From UHGV virus genome UHGV-0196349: a DNA stretch of 21,262 nt; one strand, 5' to 3'. Of the stretch, positions 722 to 14,242 are shown piece by piece; positions within the stretch are counted from its first letter, which is position 1; every line of letters starts with the position of its first letter. Under the pieces are notes generated by a model, which made no database searches, had not been told where the DNA came from, and worked only from the letters and a program-made list of their open reading frames with translations. The DNA is from a virus. Both the position numbers and the translations under genes were made by a program.

Positions 722-3667
722 TTAGTGCTTCCCTTCTATTAAGTCTAACCTAGCTTTTATCTTATCCATTTCTCTGCGCTGCCATGCCGCCTCGATATAG
801 AATAAGAGATCAGGCCTGACCCCCCATCTAGATCCTGCTGGCGTTATTTCAACGCGCTCAATGATGTCTTCCATTACCATCACTGGATTATCATCCTCAT
901 CAACAATGATGCTCCCGTCATTATCAGTCAGCGGCATTTCCCTTTGGCCAGTAATGACGTCATCATATACTGCGGGATAATCGTCATAGCAAAGAAACGC
1001 ATAGCGGCATGTTGTGCTTTCTTCTTCCATGAGTCCGTGAGAAATAAGAACATCACGAAGTTGCTGCGCGATTACACCATGATGTATCCTCGCCCCTTCT
1101 TCCCCCTTTATAGCGACAGCGTTCAGCCATTTATAAGCGATATACCTGACGTCACCCCAGGCATCCAGCAATGTTTCGTCAGGAGAGACCGGCTCTGTCT
1201 TTAATGTTCCGTCACTGGTAACCACAGGATTGGAGCCAAGATAAACTATCGAGAACCTGTTTCCCGGACCACCAAGAGCATTTACATTATCAAGATAAGG
1301 TTTAACATCTCCGTTCTCAAAAAGATGTTCGAGTGCGTTATATACCGCGCGACGTGGAGTACTGCTTCTGGAACCATGCAACGTTATCATTGCACCATCT
1401 GCTGAAGACGTTGTTTCACCGCCGCTAACGATTAATCTCTGAGCGGTAACATCATCAGACGGTACTTTCTTCGCAATAATGGCGTAATTACCCTCAAGTT
1501 TGACTTCCGCGCGAACTTGTCCTGATGTACCTGCATGGACAGTCAGTGACTGGACGGCAACATCATCTGTGAAATCAACGGGTACAGGAACCGTCCTCAC
1601 GCCTGACGTCGACATAAAAGTAGGAAGCGTTCTGTTAGGAGTGGCTCCGTAGACAAAATCCCTTGAAACAAATTCTTCCTGTTTAATTTTCACCCTGAAA
1701 CAATACAAATCAGCCGGGTGACCATCGTGAACATAAGGATATTTTCTGTTGTTATCCCCTATGCTCCATGGGTTTAGAAAGTCTTCCCCACCGAAAATGT
1801 AGTACAGCCAGTTGTCTTTGATACAAACTGAACCAACACCAACCGCAGAGTTAACTATTCCGCCCTGATAAATCTGATCAGTAACATTAACCCACTCTAC
1901 ATTATCCAGACTCCACTCATTGACGTTAACTCTGGTCATAAATGTTCTTGGATAATTTCCTGCATAACGGTTATCAGGTTCTCCTCCTTCCCACTCACCA
2001 AATGCGCGCTCACTGCCAAAAATAATCAGCTCATCGCCAACTTTGGCAAAAGGAAGGTTTGAGTGATGAACATTATTTGGGAAGCGAAGAGAGTTCCATG
2101 ATGTACCTAAATCAGAGCTTCTGTGCAATGAACTACCGGGTTGAGTACTTAATGTCCCCCTGGTCGTCAGATACAGAATGCCATCATAATATTTTACACA
2201 TGGCTCAGATGCATTCGCCTCATATTCTACAGGTATGCGTCTGCGAACAAAGCTACCAGGAGAACCGAAAGCATCAGAGAAATAGAGTATCCCAAGCTCG
2301 CGTGGACCAATATCACCATTATGGTAGCCAACAGCAAAACTGTTATCGCTAATCGTCGCAAAACTGTGAATCTCAGTAACAGGAGTGCTTCCGTCAACAA
2401 AAGAAGGAATAGTTCCAAGACTGGTTTTTCTCCATGGTGACGAGTGAAATGATGTACCAAAACTCCAGTATCTACCCTCGTTATTCTGATCCACATCCTG
2501 GGTATTTTGCGTCGTAACTGTAAAGGTATTTTTATCAATAACAGTAGTCACCGTCATATTCCCGGTAACATCTGTAACACCAGAGTTTGAGAAGTTGACA
2601 AAATCACCAGCAAATAATCCGTGATCAGTAATGCGAATATAAGCGACTTGCTGATTTGCTGCTTTCGTTATACCACCATAAACGCGAAGGCTGCGACTCA
2701 TTGGGCGATCCCACAACTCTGCAACCTGCAGTTTATTTCCTCTCACGGTCCGCGTCTCAATTACAGCAAAAAGGCGATTTCTGACAACCCCCATACTCAT
2801 GCAGTGATAGTTAACTGTGGGATAGTTTTCATGTAAATCTGTAAGCCATTCCGGCGTTGTCCAGGTCTTCCCGTCATCTCCTGAGCGAACCCATGCAACA
2901 TGGAGGTTATTTACACCATGGCGGTCTCCAGCCATAAAAGGCGCATAGATGACATTGTCATATACAAACGTTTTATCCTGCGTCCAGGCGTTGTACCACG
3001 GTGTATCTGTAATTTTAAATAACTCTCCCTGGATAAAATCTTCAGAAGCATAAAAAAGAGGCTGACCCGGTATTCTCTCAAATAAAAAACGAGCATTTTT
3101 AAATCGACTGACATCTGGAAGAGTTGATACTTTAAAAGTAAGCCCTCGCCCATCTATCTTTTCACCACCTGTTGCAACAGAAAGTAATTCTGATAGAGCT
3201 GATGTATCATCATGAACACCATCACCAATAGCCCCCCAACCTCTTACATCATAACTGTCTCTCCATCTTGCTATCTGAAGTTTTGGGTATTTATTCGCTC
3301 CATCTGGGTCTTCTAATTGCTGCCGTAGTTGATCAGGGTCATACTTCAGCACATTAGGAAAATAGAACTGCTGCGCACCATACGCATCATAAACAGCCAT
3401 AGAATGGCCTTGCACGGTAACGAATTTGGCAATCTGTCCGTTATATACAGGATATCCAGCAGCGTTAATGATTATTGGTTGCGAAACAGGAACGTGAGAA
3501 CCGTCTTCGTTTTCCACATAAACCTGAATCTGGTTTTCAGGATTTACAGGGTCAGTGTCAATTTTACCGATATAAATTTTGCCATTGGCTACGGCTTTAA
3601 AAGAACGCGCCATAGTGAAGAGTTGCGAAGGCATCGATACGATCACATTGGCTGTAATGTCTCTCAT
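722..3667 (-). CDS. Chimeric tailspike: P22 gp9-type N-terminal head-binding domain + endo-N-acetylneuraminidase (K1 polysialic acid endosialidase) + C-terminal intramolecular-chaperone autocleavage domain
   Basis: 981-aa ORF. The N-terminus ([10 protein letters not shown]...[33 protein letters not shown]...[14 protein letters not shown]...NVLKYDPDQ) is near-identical in pattern to the P22 tailspike head-binding domain. Asp-box sialidase motifs are present ([16 protein letters not shown]). The C-terminus has the S74-type motif [11 protein letters not shown], with a Ser...Lys dyad at the expected cleavage serine (codon at 1214-1216). ATG at 3667 with GGAG about 11 nt upstream. Confidence 0.85.
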
Positions 3668-4703: not shown

Positions 4704-4765
4704 GTTGGTTTTTCTCCACGGATTTACTGACAACCGAAGCCCTGACTGTTCCCGCAGTTGGGGCT

Positions 4766-4969
4766 TCAACTTTCTGATCTATCAGTTATATCTTTCCCTT
4801 CATATACTTCACCTATATTGCTAATGCTGGCAGAACATCCAAGATGCTTGTATCTTATGATGTCCAACACGCAGTCACTACACAGCATCCGACCTGTTTC
4901 TTTAGAGTAAATGTATGTTTGATCAGCGTCTGATTCGCTAATGCCGCAGAAACAACATTCTTTACTCAT
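4766..4969 (-). CDS. Small Cys-rich protein (CxC...CxxC, putative zinc-ribbon) inserted between arc and ant
   Basis: 67-aa [39 protein letters not shown]... Its ATG overlaps the arc stop as ATGA (4969-4966), suggesting translational coupling. No recognised homolog. P22 itself has no gene at this position. Confidence 0.5.
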
Positions 4970-5232: not shown

Positions 5233-5481
5233 ATGGCAAAGGGTGTGTCAATTTCTCCAACTACGGTAAGAATCCCTGAATCTTTACGCGAGGCTCTTGC
5301 TGTCAGAGCATCAAAAAATGGTCGCTCTGTTAACTCCGAGATCGTCATGATTTTGCAAGCCGCGATTGATGAAGATAGGTCGCCAAAGTCAGTTGAGTCA
5401 TTTGCTCAGCAAGAAGCTGACAAATTCAAAGAGGCGCTGCTTGAGACGCTAAAGACCATGTATGGTAAGGATGAAAAATAA
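5233..5481 (+). CDS. mnt: Mnt-type ribbon-helix-helix maintenance repressor
   Basis: 82 aa from the ATG at 5233: MAKGVSISPTTVRIPESLREALAVRASKNGRSVNSEIVMILQ...LETLKTMYGKDEK. The RHH core ..NGRSxNSE.. and P22 Mnt-like length fit. It is transcribed opposite to arc-ant, as in P22 immI. Confidence 0.8.
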   Translation: MAKGVSISPTTVRIPESLREALAVRASKNGRSVNSEIVMILQAAIDEDRSPKSVESFAQQEADKFKEALLETLKTMYGKDEK

Positions 5482-6017
5482 TGCTGCACACAATTCATTT
5501 CTTATGCCCCGTTAACACTGCCACTGTTGGGCAACTTCAGAACCACTGTCTCACCGCATTATCTCAAGGCGCAACTGAATTAAATATCCATATATCAAGT
5601 CAGGGAGGGGAAACTGCCGCTGGCTTTACTGCGTATAACTTTCTTAAGTCACTCCCTGTTACCGTTAGAACTCACAACATAAGCAATGTTGAATCCATAG
5701 CTAATATCGTTTTCCTGGCTGGCTCAGAACGTTTCGCAAACCCATTATCAAGATTCCTGTTACATCCTCTATTATGGTGCTTTGCCTCCCCAGCCGCCGA
5801 CCATGCCAGATTGAGAGAGTACGGGAAATGCCTCGATAACGATCTTGATCGCTTCGTTGAGACGTTCAATATCGACATCGGAACCCATATTAGGTGGGCA
5901 TCCCTGATAGCAGACTCGACCATTTTGGATGCTAACAAGGCTCTTGAGCATGGCATAATTAATTCCATAAAAACTGCAAGGCTGGTATCCAATCAGGCAA
6001 ACTGGTGGGTTGTTTGA
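5481..6017 (+). CDS. ClpP-fold (Clp/crotonase-like) serine protease-like protein, coupled to mnt
   Basis: 178 aa. The start overlaps the mnt stop (TAATG). It aligns by eye to the ClpP core: IHISSQGGE ~ YINSPGG; AAGFTAYNFL ~ TAGMSIYDTM; NVESIANIVFLAG ~ GQAASMGAFLLTAG (nucleophile Ser in register); RFLLHPL ~ RVMIHQPL (His in register). It is shorter than ClpP and lacks the N-terminal axial region. Confidence 0.7.
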   Translation: MLHTIHFLCPVNTATVGQLQNHCLTALSQGATELNIHISSQGGETAAGFTAYNFLKSLPVTVRTHNISNVESIANIVFLAGSERFANPLSRFLLHPLLWCFASPAADHARLREYGKCLDNDLDRFVETFNIDIGTHIRWASLIADSTILDANKALEHGIINSIKTARLVSNQANWWVV

Positions 6018-6082: not shown

Positions 6083-6155
6083 GGACCATATTGACTACTC
6101 ATAAAATGAGATCAATATTTAATCGCCCAATAACGGGTGCATGTTGAGGTATATC

Positions 6156-6335
6156 ATGGCGAAAAAACCAGGTGAAAACACAGGAAAAAACGGCGGAATA
6201 TACCAAGAAGTTGGCCCACGCGGCGGTAAGAAAGACAATTTTGCCACCGTCAAGGACAACGAAAGGCTTCCACCAACAACAAAGCCAGGTCATGGCTGGG
6301 TATTGGATAAGCGAACTCCAGACAGCAAAAAGTAA
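6156..6335 (+). CDS. Small basic Gly/Lys-rich protein, possibly YjzC-like family
   Basis: 59 aa from the ATG at 6156 (GAGGT 7 nt upstream): MAKKPGENTGKNGGIYQEVGPRGGKKDNFATVKDNERLPPTTKPGHGWVLDKRTPDSKK. The GxYxExG...W...KR pattern recalls YjzC-like small proteins; this is from memory and unverified. It is followed by a hairpin + T-run. Confidence 0.5.
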   Translation: MAKKPGENTGKNGGIYQEVGPRGGKKDNFATVKDNERLPPTTKPGHGWVLDKRTPDSKK

Positions 6336-6340
6336 TACTC

Positions 6341-6363
6341 AAGCCGGGTCACTCCGGCTTTTT
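6341..6363 (+). terminator. Weak intrinsic terminator (AAGCCGG-loop-CCGGCTT + short T-run)
   Basis: Stem 6341-6347 / 6354-6360, 6-nt loop, then TTT. The stop codon of the convergent minus-strand ORF lies in the loop. Confidence 0.4.
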
Positions 6364-6714
6364 GATATGTCGCTCGCAGAACTCAACAAGCCTGCTCATT
6401 AAGTAGCAGTAAGTCTCATTGGCTCTTCCTGGTTCAACATCAACACCGACCCTTGAGCAGATATCGAATGCCATGTGAGCGCACTCATGGGCAATAGTAG
6501 ATAGTTTGCCATTGAACACGCCTATCACATGCAAAACACCATTCTCGCTGCTCATTGTATGAGACGCTCCGTTGGCGTCCGAGTCATGCACGTCAACGCC
6601 AAGTTTTTGATGCAGGCGTTGCCATTCTGGAAAGTCTCTACAAAACACAATTGTACCGCTCTCAAAGAGCGGAACGAGCATCTTTGGTACGTTTCCAATG
6701 TTAACTTTTTTCAT
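6349..6714 (-). CDS. Small HExxH-motif protein (putative minimal zinc-metallopeptidase-like)
   Basis: 121 aa from the ATG at 6714 (AGGA 4 nt upstream): MKKVNIGNVPKMLVPLFESGTIVFCRDFPEW...STIAHECAHMAFDICSRVG... It contains a single HExxH motif. The family is not recognised. Its 5' end abuts the divergent plus-strand gene, about 30 bp between starts. Confidence 0.5.
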   Translation of the reverse strand: MKKVNIGNVPKMLVPLFESGTIVFCRDFPEWQRLHQKLGVDVHDSDANGASHTMSSENGVLHVIGVFNGKLSTIAHECAHMAFDICSRVGVDVEPGRANETYCYLMSRLVEFCERHIKKPE

Positions 6715-6744
6715 GGTATCCTGCTCAAAACTAAGGAGCTTGGT

Positions 6745-7134
6745 GTGAAGCAATTTCTTGCTGCTATGTTCTTATTCATATCTTTTGGGGCTACAGCAGA
6801 GTGCTGGGTCGTTGGAGATATGCGCGGAATAAGCTATTCAGAACGAAATAATTTCCATCCGGAAGAAGATGGTTTTAGTGGAACATTCATCATTAAGACA
6901 AGCGGTGAAGATGCCAGCATCACATATTCTGGGACAGATGCGGGCGGCATGGCTTACAAAGCATTGTCTAAAAACTCCATCATAGGAATCGGCGCGAATG
7001 GCGAAACTCAACGCGTTATCGACTCATGGGTAATACATCCTACTGGAACAGTTTTAATGTCAAAAACCATTTCTGGTTATGGGAATATGGATTCAACCAA
7101 AGCTTTTGTTGGAAAAGTAAAAAGAAAATGTTAA
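6745..7134 (+). CDS. Signal-peptide (secreted/periplasmic) protein of unknown function
   Basis: GTG at 6745 with TAAGGAG 6 nt upstream. The N-terminus MKQFLAAMFLFISFGATA|ECWVV has a basic n-region, a hydrophobic core and an A-x-A-like cleavage site; it is not a lipobox. The mature protein is about 111 aa, Gly/Ser/Thr-rich, with Cys near both ends. The in-frame ORF-track extension to 6529 overlaps the opposite-strand gene and is discounted. Confidence 0.55.
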   Translation: MKQFLAAMFLFISFGATAECWVVGDMRGISYSERNNFHPEEDGFSGTFIIKTSGEDASITYSGTDAGGMAYKALSKNSIIGIGANGETQRVIDSWVIHPTGTVLMSKTISGYGNMDSTKAFVGKVKRKC

Positions 7135-7158: not shown

Positions 7159-9000
7159 TTACTGCTGTGTTGCCTCAGTAGCAAGCAGCGGCCTGATGGC
7201 ATTTGCAGCGTTACTCAACGCTCTTTCATAGGCTGGTGTTCCTGCTTTGGTGTTTGCCAGACGTAAGAGCGCATTCCTTGCTGCTTTGGACTCATACAAG
7301 CGCATCATTGCACCGAAACCAGCCTCAAGCCCCATTGATACGCCAAGAGTCGCAGTTGCGCCAATCGTCCTTATCCTGTTGGCTTGCGATTGCCCCGTCT
7401 GAGTTACTACATTTGCGGTGTCTGACCTTGCTGTTTGCTGCAGAACTTCATGAAGAGCATCAAGTTCTTTCATGTGCTTTCCAGAAAAAATAGTGTTGTA
7501 AATTTCACCGCCTGACTGAGATTTCAGCTTATTAACTTCAGTGATGAACTTGGCTGGAGAGTCACCGGCCTTTTCCGCTATTTTGCTGACGTAAGCTGCA
7601 CGCATAGCATCTTTCCCTTTATCATCCAGTGCGCTCCAGATTCGTTTCACGTCAGATGGTTTTCTGCTTAATACAACGGTATTTATAAGTTCAGGACTGG
7701 CTTCACTGCTTGCCTTGTTGAGTTTGTTAGCAATGTTTTTATTAAGCACCTTATTATAAACGTTTGCATAATCGGAATTTGCTTTAAGGTATTTTGCTGC
7801 GTCTGATGCACCGAGGTTTTTAGCAACTGCGTTACGAAGGTCTTTTGACATTGCATTCTCTACCATATTGGTAGCTGCTTTTGCCTGGTTGGGGAAGACC
7901 ATAGCATCTCCCTGAACATTAGATCTAAATGCTGTTCTGTGCTGACGCAAGAGATCAAACGTAACATCCAAATCAGTTGCAGGGTTTGCTAATTCTTCAC
8001 GTAGGTTACGCAAGGATGTAAGCAGGCTTTGATTGGCAGACGTCCCAAGTCGTTCCTGTCTTGCGATCGCTGTATTCAGAGCATTCATGGTATTTGTGGT
8101 ATCAACTGCGGCATTACCCATTTTATTGGTGACGTCATTGATAACAGCGCCAGCGGCATCCTTCCTCCCCCTTAACGTGGTGGTCAGAGATTTCACCACA
8201 TCATCAGGGTTGTACTCACCAAAACGGTCAAAATAATTACTTACCAGCTTACTACGCGTTGCATATTGCTCCGCTCGCTTTGAGCCTGTCCCGAGCAAAG
8301 CCCCCTCGGCATCCTGAGTAAGGCCGCGAGTGAAAGCATTTTTCGGCGGGATAACATCAGATGTCATTGGTGTCACGCCCATCGATTCTGATGTGGCAAT
8401 TTTCTTCGCCACTTCTGGCGCAATATCACCTTTTATAGCCGTTATTCCACGCCCTATTCCCTTTGCTGCGGCGGAAAGAACACCCTGAGCGGCAAGGTTA
8501 ACTCCGGCATTTTTAGCTGCATTTTGTGCGAAATCGCCTTTCTGATTTGCGGCCTCTGCCAGTGATCCAATAGCCATGCTTCCTGCCGTTCCAACTCCTG
8601 GAACTAAATACCCACCAATTGTTTCACCGGCTTGTGCGTAGGGGTCTGTCGGTCTGTCTACTGGACGATAAACATCATCCAAAACCTTGGGTCCACCAAG
8701 CCCCTGACTGATTGCATTAATCAGACTTGCGCCACCCTGCAATACGTCAAATGGTATGTTTACCAGACCACGACCAGCCTGTTCTGCAATTTGCTCTGCA
8801 CTTTGACCACCAGTGAGCCAATCGCCAGCTTGTTGCATCAATGATGGTTCTTCCCGTGTTGGTGCATTATTGGCCTGATTAACTGTTTGTTGCTGAACAG
8901 CCTGACCAGCAAAATACTCATCAATGGCGGTGCCAATATCTTCGGTGCTCGTACCATCAGGAAAGGTAAATGTCTTACCGTTTGCAGTTACTTTCATCAT
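7159..9000 (-). CDS. gp16: Ejection (injection) protein gp16
   Basis: 613 aa, [30 protein letters not shown]..., recognised as P22 gp16-like. The ATGA overlap with the gp20 stop and the synteny 7-20-16 both fit. Confidence 0.85.
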
Positions 9001-10463
9001 TCCACCGTAAATTGAATGCCTGATTTTGAGGTATATGATCCGGATTGACTCTGCTGCTGTTGGGTATTTGTCGGTTGTTGGCTATTGCTCTGTTGTTGAC
9101 TATTTGCAGCACTTGAAACCACCAAAGCATCATAAACGCGACCAGACTGACCACGTAATGAGTTATATTGGCCCTGCATTTTTCGCATTTTTGTTTCAGT
9201 AGCAGCCTTGGAATCACCGGGCTGAGGGAGGTACATTTTGGAATACTCCTGCATCTCTGGCAGAGTAATTGCTGCACCTGTTTCTGGGCGCAAAATTGCA
9301 TACAAGGCGTCTCTCGCATTTACCATATATTGCTGCTCCGCTGGTGATAGGCTTAAATTTGCAATAGTTCCATCACCAAGAGAGCGATTTATTAATGCAA
9401 CTCGCTTAGGGTCAATGCTTTTACTAAGCTGATTCATTGAGTCCATTGAATCTTTTAATCGCAAAGCAAATCCCGCCGCCTTCTTGGAACCCTCATTAGC
9501 CTTATCTATGATGCTTTGCGCTTGTGGCAAGCTAATTGGTTTAATGCCATCACCAGATATAGGTTGGTTTAGTTTTCCGGCTTCCTCGCTGCCATCGGTG
9601 TAATACTTAGTTACCGAGCCATCAGGATTGGTTTCAACCTTAAGTAATTTCTTAGCATTGGGATTAATTCCCGCCGCTGCCGCAAATGCCGCTGCACCAT
9701 CTGGATCTACCTTTAACATTTGCGCGTACTGATTGTAATTCTGCATTGCGGCTGTTGGTGCATATGCTGACGTTAACGCATTTGCTCGGCTAATATCCTG
9801 CCCTCTCGCCTGAAGTGCTTCACCAGCCTGATTGCTGCGGATTGTCTCTGCCAGTCTGCCTCGGTCAATCTCACGACCAGCCATCTTGTCCTGAACATTG
9901 AAGTAATCAATCGGACCAAGAGCAGCCATCCCAAGGTGATCAACAAACTCACCAAATCCTGAAGGATTCTGCTGATACATCTGAGCAACGTTATTAGGGT
10001 CAACACCGACGCGAGTCAGTTCCTTGGCGTTGTTTTGCAGCCATGATTGCATTGCTTCTGGAGACGAGGCCGCAAGGCGTGCGCCAGCCGCTAAGGTGCC
10101 GATAGAATTGCGCTGGTCTTCATCAATGAATCCCATGCCTTTGCGAACAGATTCAATCTGGTCTGGATATTGAGTAGCCAACTGACGCAAAGCACCGCGA
10201 TCACCAGACGCATAAGCATTAGCGTACGCCTGCTGAAATTCTTTCTGCCGCTGAGCCTGCTTTTCCTGCTGAAACACCCCTGCAATACCTGAAAGGCCTT
10301 GCAAAGCAGTCAGCCCAACATTGTTAGCGCCTGAACGCTCAATATCATTGTTCTGCCTGATAAGCTGAAGCGTATTGCCGATGTCATTTACGCTCGGAGC
10401 GTTTGAGTTGACACCACCGATACCAGCCAACAATCCGCCATTTGTTCCTTGCCAAGTAGCCAT
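8997..10463 (-). CDS. gp20: Ejection protein gp20
   Basis: 488 aa. Position and size match P22 gp20. The C-terminal tail is Q/S-rich. Confidence 0.8.
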
Positions 10464-13742: not shown

Positions 13743-14242
13743 TATTCGCTCCCGTTATCGCAAGGTTCCTTTCGGTGGAAGTAATTCCAACCGTTCCACT
13801 TCGCCAACTGGTTACCACTACCAACAGGCATACGGTTTGGATAACCGGACTTACATTTAGCGGCTTTTGCTCTGTCCATTGCAGACAGTTTGACGAGTCG
13901 CTCTTTCCCGTATCTGGCAGTGGTTATAAGTTTTGCAGACGCTTCCAGCGCATAATCTGGAGCAATGCGGCAGGCAAGGTTGAAAATGACGGCATTTATA
14001 GCGTTATTTGATAATCCGTGCTCATCTCCCGGATCTGGAGCGACATCTGCATCAGCAAAAATGTAGCCAACGTTGATACCAGGTGACACATCACCGCCAA
14101 GCCATTCAGCCATCATCATTTCAAGGTCGTTGACGCCATCTTCCATGGACTGAGGTTCGACATCGGTTAACGTGGCATTTGATGCCACACCGAGCTTACG
14201 TAATGCCGCAAGAACTAAATCACCCTTCGTTGTCAGGTTCAT
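13742..14242 (-). CDS. gp4: Head completion / tail accessory protein gp4
   Basis: 166 aa from the internal ATG at 14242: [41 protein letters not shown]..., matching the P22 gp4 N-terminus and length. The ORF-track start at 14356 is an upstream extension in another gene's space. Confidence 0.85.

Follow-up and report, generated by a model that had tools for sequence, protein, structure and literature searches.

The DNA analysed here is the virus genome UHGV-0196349, a stretch of 21,262 nucleotides (nt) that we refer to as the window, and all positions given below without a locus label are positions in this window. It corresponds to the end of the late operon in a P22-like (Lederbergvirus) prophage, and its late genes lie on the minus strand. 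This report concerns two small genes that diverge from a common junction between the mnt homolog and gene 16 (Table 1). The minus-strand gene is hkcC, which encodes a protein with an HExxH motif, and the plus-strand gene encodes a protein with a predicted signal peptide, hereafter called the exported protein. A preliminary description of this DNA had recorded a 121-amino acid (aa) HExxH protein on the minus strand and a signal-peptide protein on the plus strand, with starts about 30 bp apart, and its coordinates, lengths, motif and cysteines were all found to be correct. It had also assigned the pair to the sieA slot. The exported-protein gene does occupy this slot, while hkcC is itself a gene that adjoins sieA in P22.

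The start codons of the two genes were assigned from ribosome-binding sites and homolog alignments. An AGGA Shine-Dalgarno sequence is found 4 nt upstream of the hkcC ATG at 6714; an alternative start at TTG 6753 was rejected because homologs align from the MKK start. The exported-protein gene has AAGGAG (6733-6738) 6 nt ahead of its GTG at 6745, the position at which homolog alignments also place the start, and a 201-aa plus-strand open reading frame (ORF) beginning at 6529 was rejected on this basis. Between the two start codons lie 30 bp (6715-6744).

Table 1. Features of the window at the hkcC/exported-protein junction (upper rows) and in its surroundings (lower rows). E, expectation value.
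Feature	Positions	Strand	Description
hkcC	6349-6714	-	ATG at 6714, stop included at 6349; 121 aa
Exported-protein gene	6745-7134	+	GTG start, stop included; 129 aa; occupies sieA slot
H76-E77-C78-A79-H80 codons (hkcC)	6475-6489	-	reverse complement CAT GAG TGC GCT CAC
N99-E100 codons (hkcC)	6415-6420	-	candidate third metal ligand, start of last helix
Signal-peptide codons (exported protein)	6745-6798	+	residues 1-18, MKQFLAAMFLFISFGATA; predicted cleavage after A-T-A
33-nt linker GGTATCCTGCTCAAAACTAAGGAGCTTGGTGTG	6715-6747	both	hkcC Shine-Dalgarno (-); AAGGAG Shine-Dalgarno and GTG (+)
PsieA-equivalent stretch	6684-6714	+	AF527608 promoter feature 13861-13891 maps here; antisense in hkcC codons 1-10
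Stem-loop terminator	6341-6360	+	between convergent orf59a and hkcC; 8-bp stem, then T run
orf59a homolog	6156-6335	+	59 aa, basic; weakly YjzC-like (Pfam YjzC, E 0.0013); phrog_3202, E 7e-31
Gene 16 (ejection protein)	7159-9000	-	convergent with exported-protein gene; 24 bp between stop codons
Gene 20	8997-10463	-	late gene of the window
ClpP-like ORF	5481-6017	+	178 aa; Pfam CLP_protease, E 2e-11
mnt homolog	5233-5481	+	overlaps ClpP-like ORF by ATGA
sar antisense RNA	4704-4771	+	canonical, between arc and ant; Rfam, 95.6 bits
Tailspike ORF	722-3667	-	981 aa

Both small ORFs are genuine genes and not chance ORFs. Each protein matches a PHROG family of unknown function from end to end, HkcC matching phrog_1365 (E 1.7e-39) and the exported protein phrog_2651 (E 9e-61). 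Profile searches extended the 32 close relatives of HkcC to a family of at least 326 clusters. For the exported protein, 22 close relatives were found, and an exhaustive profile search yielded 126 representatives at 50% identity, all of them 120-135 aa long and matched over their full length. In 82 coding sequences of the exported-protein gene, representing 37 alleles, every frame was intact, and the ratio of nonsynonymous to synonymous substitution rates was 0.06-0.18 across the mature part. The possibility, raised in the preliminary description, that one of the ORFs is an artefact of the gene on the opposite strand is answered by this conservation.

The minus-strand gene is 99.2% identical to HK620 hkcC and to the corresponding ORF of P22, which is often left unannotated; the P22-pbi record (AF527608) shows this stretch without a coding sequence and with only the features 't mnt' and 'P sieA'. 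In HK620, gene 16 is followed by hkcB on the opposite strand and then by hkcC; next come a bidirectional terminator, an orf59a-like ORF and gene 9. Compared with hkcC of HK620 and P22, the minus-strand gene has the same neighbours (slot gene, terminator and orf59a) in the same orientation, and nothing material differs. Thus hkcC is a constant flank beside different slot genes, sieA in P22 and hkcB in HK620. In P22, which is a reference phage, Villafane et al. (PMC2629481) placed hkcC and 59a among the 'ant moron' genes without known function, described ten moron types across sixteen genomes and reported that late transcription in P22 crosses the ant-moron region to the tailspike gene. The gene is therefore already named in the literature, and the invariance of its motif and the prediction of its fold are additions of the present analysis.

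For counts of gene neighbourhoods we used 80 loci carrying the exported-protein gene and 80 IMG/VR loci carrying hkcC. The orf59a gene accompanies hkcC in 70 of the 80 hkcC loci. The same convergent arrangement of hkcC and orf59a was seen again in Klebsiella and Rosenbergiella prophages of the siphophage type, where it sits between the tail chaperone gene and the tape measure gene; hkcC there is 60-62% and orf59a 76-78% identical to the copies in the window. The two genes arranged around one terminator (6156-6714 in the window; L175 5001-5563 and L177 5001-5556 in the other prophages) move as a unit between prophage types. In all contexts hkcC is co-oriented with the late genes, whether it lies after gene 16 (P22-like prophages), before the tape measure gene (siphophage-type prophages) or between lysis and terminase genes (other prophages). 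A large clade of 123-aa HkcC proteins is encoded directly upstream of the small terminase gene (L178-L181 3619-4372, and the L192 group). In 11 loci of this clade a second, unrelated HExxH protein follows (PF18894, a putative phage metallopeptidase); kinship of HkcC itself with PF18894 (PhageMetallopep) was rejected at an hhalign probability of 0.6% over 9 aligned columns.

The HExxH motif is invariant over 115 family members, down to approximately 30% identity, and on this point the preliminary description is supported. The invariant residues of these 115 sequences are L16, F17, G49, H76, E77, C78, H80, F83, G90, N99 and E100, so that the full motif reads HExxH-x19-NE, with E100 lying 20 residues after H80. 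Both HExxH and NET are kept in ST64T Orf-129 (38% identity), in mEp044 (36%) and in a protein of a Pseudomonas N4-like phage (30%). In an AlphaFold2 model (predicted local distance difference test score, 91.0; predicted template modelling score, 0.85), two strands, a helix and two further strands precede the HExxH helix (residues 71-88), which is followed by a loop and by a helix (residues 100-116) beginning at E100. In thermolysin, H146 and E166 are likewise 20 residues apart, and an Asn-Glu pair follows the motif. HkcC resembles thermolysin-type gluzincins and minigluzincins in its HExxH helix and in an invariant Asn-Glu placed 20 residues past the second His, at the start of the next helix. 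With respect to what defines a zincin, a conserved HExxH is present, and a Glu on the following helix is present at the level of sequence and secondary structure. HkcC has no leader peptide and is predicted to be cytoplasmic.

None of the folds suggested in the preliminary description for either protein (ImmA/IrrE, a clear SprT-like match, a lysozyme inhibitor) was found. Scans of both proteins against Pfam, NCBIfam and PADLOC (PADLOC-DB dated 2023) gave nothing significant, searches of PDB sequences with the family profiles found nothing, and the predicted fold of HkcC had no clear match among solved structures. Not one of the 115 HkcC family members matched the Pfam family Peptidase_M78 (ImmA/IrrE) at E values up to 1. 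Assignment of HkcC to the SprT-like family (PF10263) was also rejected, the matches being motif-sized and sub-threshold (10-15.5 bits over 17-38 residues, against a gathering threshold of 25.6). Such weak matches occurred in 68 of the 115 members, with a best E value of 0.01, and were centred on a strand and the HExxH helix; one database entry of the family is labelled SprT-like. A third conserved His and a C-terminal zinc ribbon are features of SprT, and in the alignment HkcC has neither. We infer that HkcC works like a minimal gluzincin, yet it is filed in no family. An invariant thermolysin-like metal site in a 121-aa protein without a clear structural match offers a compact target for biochemistry.

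HkcC is probably a minimal zinc hydrolase that would be made late in infection. A possible alternative, to which we assign a lower but appreciable likelihood, is that HkcC is not a peptidase and either uses its metal for structure or other chemistry or works by stoichiometric binding, as a counter-defence factor might. The ST64T homolog has a weak, sub-threshold match to aKG-HExxH hydroxylases, and relatives of HkcC, among them some of the 123-aa clade, are occasionally encoded next to Tad2-like or Acb2/Tad1-like genes (3 of 8 loci). Against this alternative, the catalytic Glu of the motif is invariant together with both His residues and the downstream Glu, the spacing is thermolysin-like, and the order of secondary structure in the model is what a minimal zincin core would be expected to show. 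The anti-defence neighbours are a minority among varied ones: a survey of 80 loci found a mixture that included DUF2560, gp49/66, KilA-N, T5orf172 and terminase genes, and association with anti-defence genes was set aside as a weak argument. A counter-defence role can be entertained only as a possibility.

On the other side of the junction, the window departs abruptly from P22. By megablast, identity to P22 is 98% over positions 6101-6747, a stretch that includes orf59a, the terminator, all of hkcC and the region upstream of sieA, and the full 1.1 kb is matched by phage ST-35 only. Of the 108 positions from 6640 to 6747, the last three being the GTG, 2 distinguish the window from P22; from the next codon onward the two are unrelated. 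The 33-nt linker of the junction follows the pattern GGTATCCTG..AAAACTAAGGAG.TTGGTGTG across the loci (L007-L166). It was found in 63 of the 80 loci with the exported-protein gene and in 60 of the 80 hkcC loci, and it is kept also where the upstream flank is not hkcC. What follows TAAGGAG(C/G)TTGGTGTG in the 80 hkcC loci is SieA in 13, the exported protein in 12 and another ORF in 55. At least 12 unrelated cassette types of 62-164 aa were found behind the linker. The N-terminus carries a transmembrane segment, signal peptide or lipoprotein signal in 11 types, and all types other than SieA are listed as 'unknown' in PHROG. The occupants of the slot include a 161-aa lipoprotein (18 loci), two-helix proteins of 75 and 62 aa, and two 109-aa membrane-anchored coiled-coil proteins.

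The exported-protein gene abuts gene 16 in nearly all of its 80 loci, and the adjoining gene 16 alleles are 60, 80 or approximately 100% identical to that of the window. The slot thus behaves, as judged from these comparisons, as a cassette exchange site with a fixed 33-nt entry, and the description of the site as a hotspot for exclusion and lysogenic-conversion genes is borne out by its at least 12 different cassettes, SieA included. Only about a third of P22-like phages carry sieA (PMC10883804). A slot with a fixed entry provides a ready list of approximately 10 further candidate exclusion proteins. In many of the loci without hkcC, all that is left of the gene upstream of the linker is its initial five codons (MKKVN), and the sequence beyond them is unrelated; these remnants indicate that deletion or replacement has occurred repeatedly on the hkcC side too. 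At one locus (L040 3464-3895, minus strand) a gene for a 143-aa lipoprotein was found on the hkcC-side strand.

The compactness of the junction had led to the proposal that the two genes cannot both have conventional independent promoters. This puzzle is largely dissolved by the layout of the junction, in which the PsieA stretch lies within the first codons of hkcC and would serve the plus-strand gene. The 100 bp upstream of the exported-protein gene are those of P22 sieA. PsieA has been called putative (Leavitt 2024), and with 85 bp of upstream sequence a single chromosomal copy of P22 sieA was enough for exclusion (PMC10883804). The conserved sequence TGGTATCCT (6714-6722, its first T standing just before the linker) looks like an extended -10 element. 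In the allele group at 89% identity, the exported-protein gene is the third gene of an operon, after mnt and a gene for a 111-aa secreted protein, and in several other allele groups it follows mnt-like genes on the same strand. The gene would thus be expressed from the prophage. Because hkcC is co-oriented with the late operon, which reads through this region (PMC2629481), it probably needs no promoter of its own. The architecture therefore largely resolves the promoter question: the antiterminated late transcript can cover hkcC, and PsieA or the mnt operon can supply transcripts of the slot gene.

The leader of the exported protein begins with basic residues and has a hydrophobic core of 13 residues; positions -3 and -1 are occupied by small residues, in keeping with the cleavage rule for signal peptides. 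The mature chain runs from ECW to a C-terminal KRKC. In the 89% allele (L075 3399-4390), which starts with ATG, the leader has been replaced wholesale by another hydrophobic sequence and the mature part is conserved, which points to a recombination joint at the boundary between leader and mature protein. All members of the family have a leader followed by A-x-C-W/Y. The structure predicted for the exported protein consists of nine beta strands, and hydrophobicity is confined to the N-terminal leader. Outer-membrane barrels are recognized by membrane-spanning strands and a C-terminal aromatic signal. Five of the nine strands, at 8 residues or fewer, are too short to span a membrane, and the KRKC end (GxC in the family consensus) lacks the aromatic insertion signal; we therefore consider the protein to be probably a small soluble beta-barrel located in the periplasm. 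On the same grounds, and for want of a Pfam match, an outer-membrane barrel of the Ail/Lom/OmpX type was rejected. The cysteines noted near both ends in the preliminary description were confirmed as Cys20, directly after the leader, and the C-terminal Cys129. C20 is invariant and C129 near-invariant in the broad family, and in the model they mark the outer end of the first strand and that of the last, which suggests a closing C20-C129 disulfide.

A search with tblastn at an E value limit of 1e-5 missed the Hex relatives of this protein, which appeared when the limit was relaxed to 1. Full-length matches at 27% identity were then found to the gene downstream of cI in 434, lambda imm434, Sf6 (gene 38), HK446, HK633 and Sf101. 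In 434 this gene encodes Hex. With the database size set to 1.8 billion, Hex scored 60.5 bits (E 1.4e-11) against a profile of the close family and 127 bits (E 4e-32), from end to end, against a profile of the broad family. 434 Hex reads MIRIAALLSILLTTSANS-ECWIV...ETW...FVGDVVGTCNQ and has the same architecture as the exported protein, sharing with it the leader, ECW, ETW and a C-terminal FVGxVxGxC. An alignment of 11 sequences including Hex and Sf6 gp38 left C20, W21, G28, D42, F48, W95, V122 and G123 invariant and C129 conserved in at least 90%. Inspection of the loci of 434 hex (L268 2501-2905) and Sf6 gene 38 (L269 2501-2905) revealed a clear signal peptide and a terminal cysteine pair in 434 Hex. 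We conclude from these alignments that the exported protein is a diverged Hex-family variant in a new genomic position.

According to Shkilnyj et al. (PMC3564112, citing Susskind and Botstein 1980), hex is co-transcribed with cI from PRM and takes its name from heterologous exclusion: P22 is excluded by Salmonella that are lysogenic for lambda imm434, but not by hex-minus lysogens. Since a further occupant of the sieA slot belongs to Hex, the only other family reported to exclude P22, we infer that the exported protein excludes P22-like phages, and this membership is the principal argument for such a role. More distant members are opposite-strand insertions in other prophages, lying between the tail genes and the tape measure gene in Serratia and between the lysis and terminase genes in Rahnella. 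One Serratia gene (L168 6001-7822), on the opposite strand within a tail gene cluster, lies directly beside homologs of RexA and RexB, so that two exclusion-type insertions are stacked at one site before the tape measure gene.

Several observations weigh against reading the slot gene as a prophage-expressed, Hex-type exclusion gene. Its product is only 27% identical to 434 Hex; two members of the family are chromosomal and not obviously in prophages; a consensus scan of the PsieA stretch gave no good sigma-70 match, so that the exact hexamers stay putative; and in vitro the RecA-stimulated cleavage of the repressors of 434 and P22 is inhibited by a 6-kDa internal fragment of Hex, a finding from which a cytoplasmic role was proposed (PMC3564112).

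It is possible, in view of the chromosomal members, that the exported barrel acts on the host as a lysogenic-conversion factor, namely as an inhibitor of lysozyme or peptidoglycan hydrolases, a ligand binder or a factor in serum or stress resistance. Some members do lie in chromosomal islands near toxin-like genes, and the exported protein has no PADLOC match. We consider such a role unlikely, however, given that none of 62 family members matched MliC, PliC, Ivy or Ail/Lom in Pfam, even under a lenient cut-off, that phage exclusion is the only genetic phenotype in the Hex family, and that the slot otherwise holds SieA.

More improbable still is that a Hex-like protein acts in the cytoplasm on repressor or RecA and lowers spontaneous induction, with exclusion as a secondary effect. 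The in vitro result with the 6-kDa fragment is in line with such a role, as is the RecA-dependent, approximately 30-fold greater induction of hex-minus lambda imm434 lysogens. In contrast, the whole family shares an N-terminal signal peptide and conserved cysteines at the termini, and the active fragment is an internal piece of the predicted barrel. Both locations of the exported-protein gene, the sieA slot and the mnt operon, lie far from the c2 repressor. In the study of Hex, the full-length protein proved toxic and resisted purification, and the paper makes no mention of a signal peptide, membrane or periplasm (PMC3564112); toxicity upon overexpression is often seen with exported proteins and would fit this class. 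The export signal found throughout the family conflicts with this only mechanistic study of Hex, and it could explain why the full-length protein was toxic and hard to purify.

The preliminary description had suggested that the HExxH protein, paired with the exported one, could be an exclusion or defence module of two components. In such a module a protease could, for instance, act on the exported partner or be under its control. The two starts are indeed only 30 bp apart at one common junction, and both genes lie within a known exclusion hotspot. The genes nevertheless assort independently: hkcC is present at 14 of the 80 loci carrying the exported-protein gene, and the exported-protein gene is present at 12 of the 80 hkcC loci. 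A 99% identical hkcC stands beside sieA in P22 and beside hkcB in HK620, and the relatives at 60-62% identity occur in siphophage-type tail clusters without such a partner. Conversely, the places where Hex relatives occur, behind cI or in tail or lysis regions, have no hkcC. HkcC is predicted to be cytoplasmic and is encoded on the late strand, and the exported protein is predicted to be periplasmic and is encoded on the lysogen-side strand. We regard a joint module as very improbable, and the two-component idea is refuted as far as distribution can refute it. The weakest alternative, that the minus-strand ORF is an artefact of the opposite strand (a PsieA leader or the long plus-strand frame), draws on the missing annotation of hkcC in several P22 records and on the open plus-strand frame from 6529 that spans it, but it has a negligible probability and is already refuted by conservation, in that the family of at least 326 clusters extends to 30% identity in a Pseudomonas N4-like phage and to unrelated genomic contexts, the fold is predicted with high confidence, and the plus-strand frame 5' of 6745 is unconserved, with cassettes diverging directly after the GTG.

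Taken together, the interpretation given in the preliminary description is partly supported, and the explanation that we prefer, with moderate confidence, is that of two independent genes at a compact divergent junction, the plus-strand one a mobile Hex-family exclusion cassette and the minus-strand one, hkcC, encoding a late minimal metal-dependent hydrolase. According to this explanation, prophages would place SieA or one of at least ten other small envelope proteins behind the conserved linker. In the lysogen, the PsieA region would drive expression of the Hex-like protein; Sec would export it, cleavage would occur after A-T-A, and in the periplasm it would fold into a small soluble beta-barrel whose ends may be tied by the first and last cysteines. 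There it would protect the lysogen from P22-like phages at an envelope step, most likely the assembly or the working of the trans-periplasmic conduit formed by the ejection proteins. hkcC would be transcribed with the late operon and give rise to a minimal cytoplasmic metal-dependent hydrolase with an HExxH plus Glu site.

A more far-reaching version is put forward only tentatively, as it is rather less likely to hold in full. It states that the Hex family, 434 Hex included, consists of periplasmic, disulfide-closed barrels that exclude P22-type phages at the ejection-protein conduit; that the slot next to gene 16 is an exchange site, anchored by promoter and ribosome-binding site, for a dozen or more mutually unrelated envelope exclusion proteins; and that HkcC is a minimal gluzincin with a fold new to solved structures, produced late by P22 itself. 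If this is true, the published cytoplasmic model of Hex acting on RecA and repressor would need revision.

Several neighbouring features of the window were also recorded (Table 1). The terminator scan placed the T run of the stem-loop between orf59a and hkcC on the plus strand only. This terminator is annotated as t-mnt in P22 and as tORF59A in HK620 records. The ClpP-like ORF that follows mnt keeps Ser and His in the expected motifs, as judged by eye. It is not in P22, it was found in several related prophages, and in one of them (L174) it lies beside gene 16 in the orientation of a slot gene. Its overlap with mnt would have a serine protease-like gene co-transcribed with a maintenance repressor. 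The tailspike ORF of the window is much longer than the gene 9 tailspike of P22, which has approximately 667 aa.

Two known exclusion systems bear directly on the exported protein. The first is SieA of P22, which is expressed from the prophage and blocks DNA injection by P22-like phages, escape mutations mapping to the gene 16 and gene 20 proteins (PMC10883804). The exported-protein gene shares with sieA the position between genes 16 and 9 behind the PsieA region, and with it the slot, the upstream 100 bp, the ribosome-binding site and the GTG. The proteins themselves are different: SieA (types A to C) is helical and sits in the inner membrane, where it has three or four transmembrane segments, whereas the exported protein is predicted to be all-beta with a cleavable leader. 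Membership in the SieA family was rejected, since BLASTP against P22 SieA gave an E value of 0.89 and the FxRYPxEAxxFNK motif (PMC10883804) is absent.

The second is 434 Hex, which resembles the exported protein in size, in its occurrence in temperate enterobacterial phages and in being encoded on the strand expressed in the lysogen. The hex gene of 434 directly follows cI in the PRM operon, whereas the exported-protein gene lies after gene 16, either behind a PsieA-type linker or at the end of the mnt operon, and the published mechanism of Hex is cytoplasmic, whereas the exported protein is predicted to leave the cytoplasm. A more distant parallel can be drawn to T4 Spackle and HK97 gp15, small phage envelope proteins that stop DNA entry by related phages. 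This comparison is an analogy only; HK97 gene 15 lies before the tape measure gene, and the Serratia member of the Hex family is likewise found before a tape measure gene.

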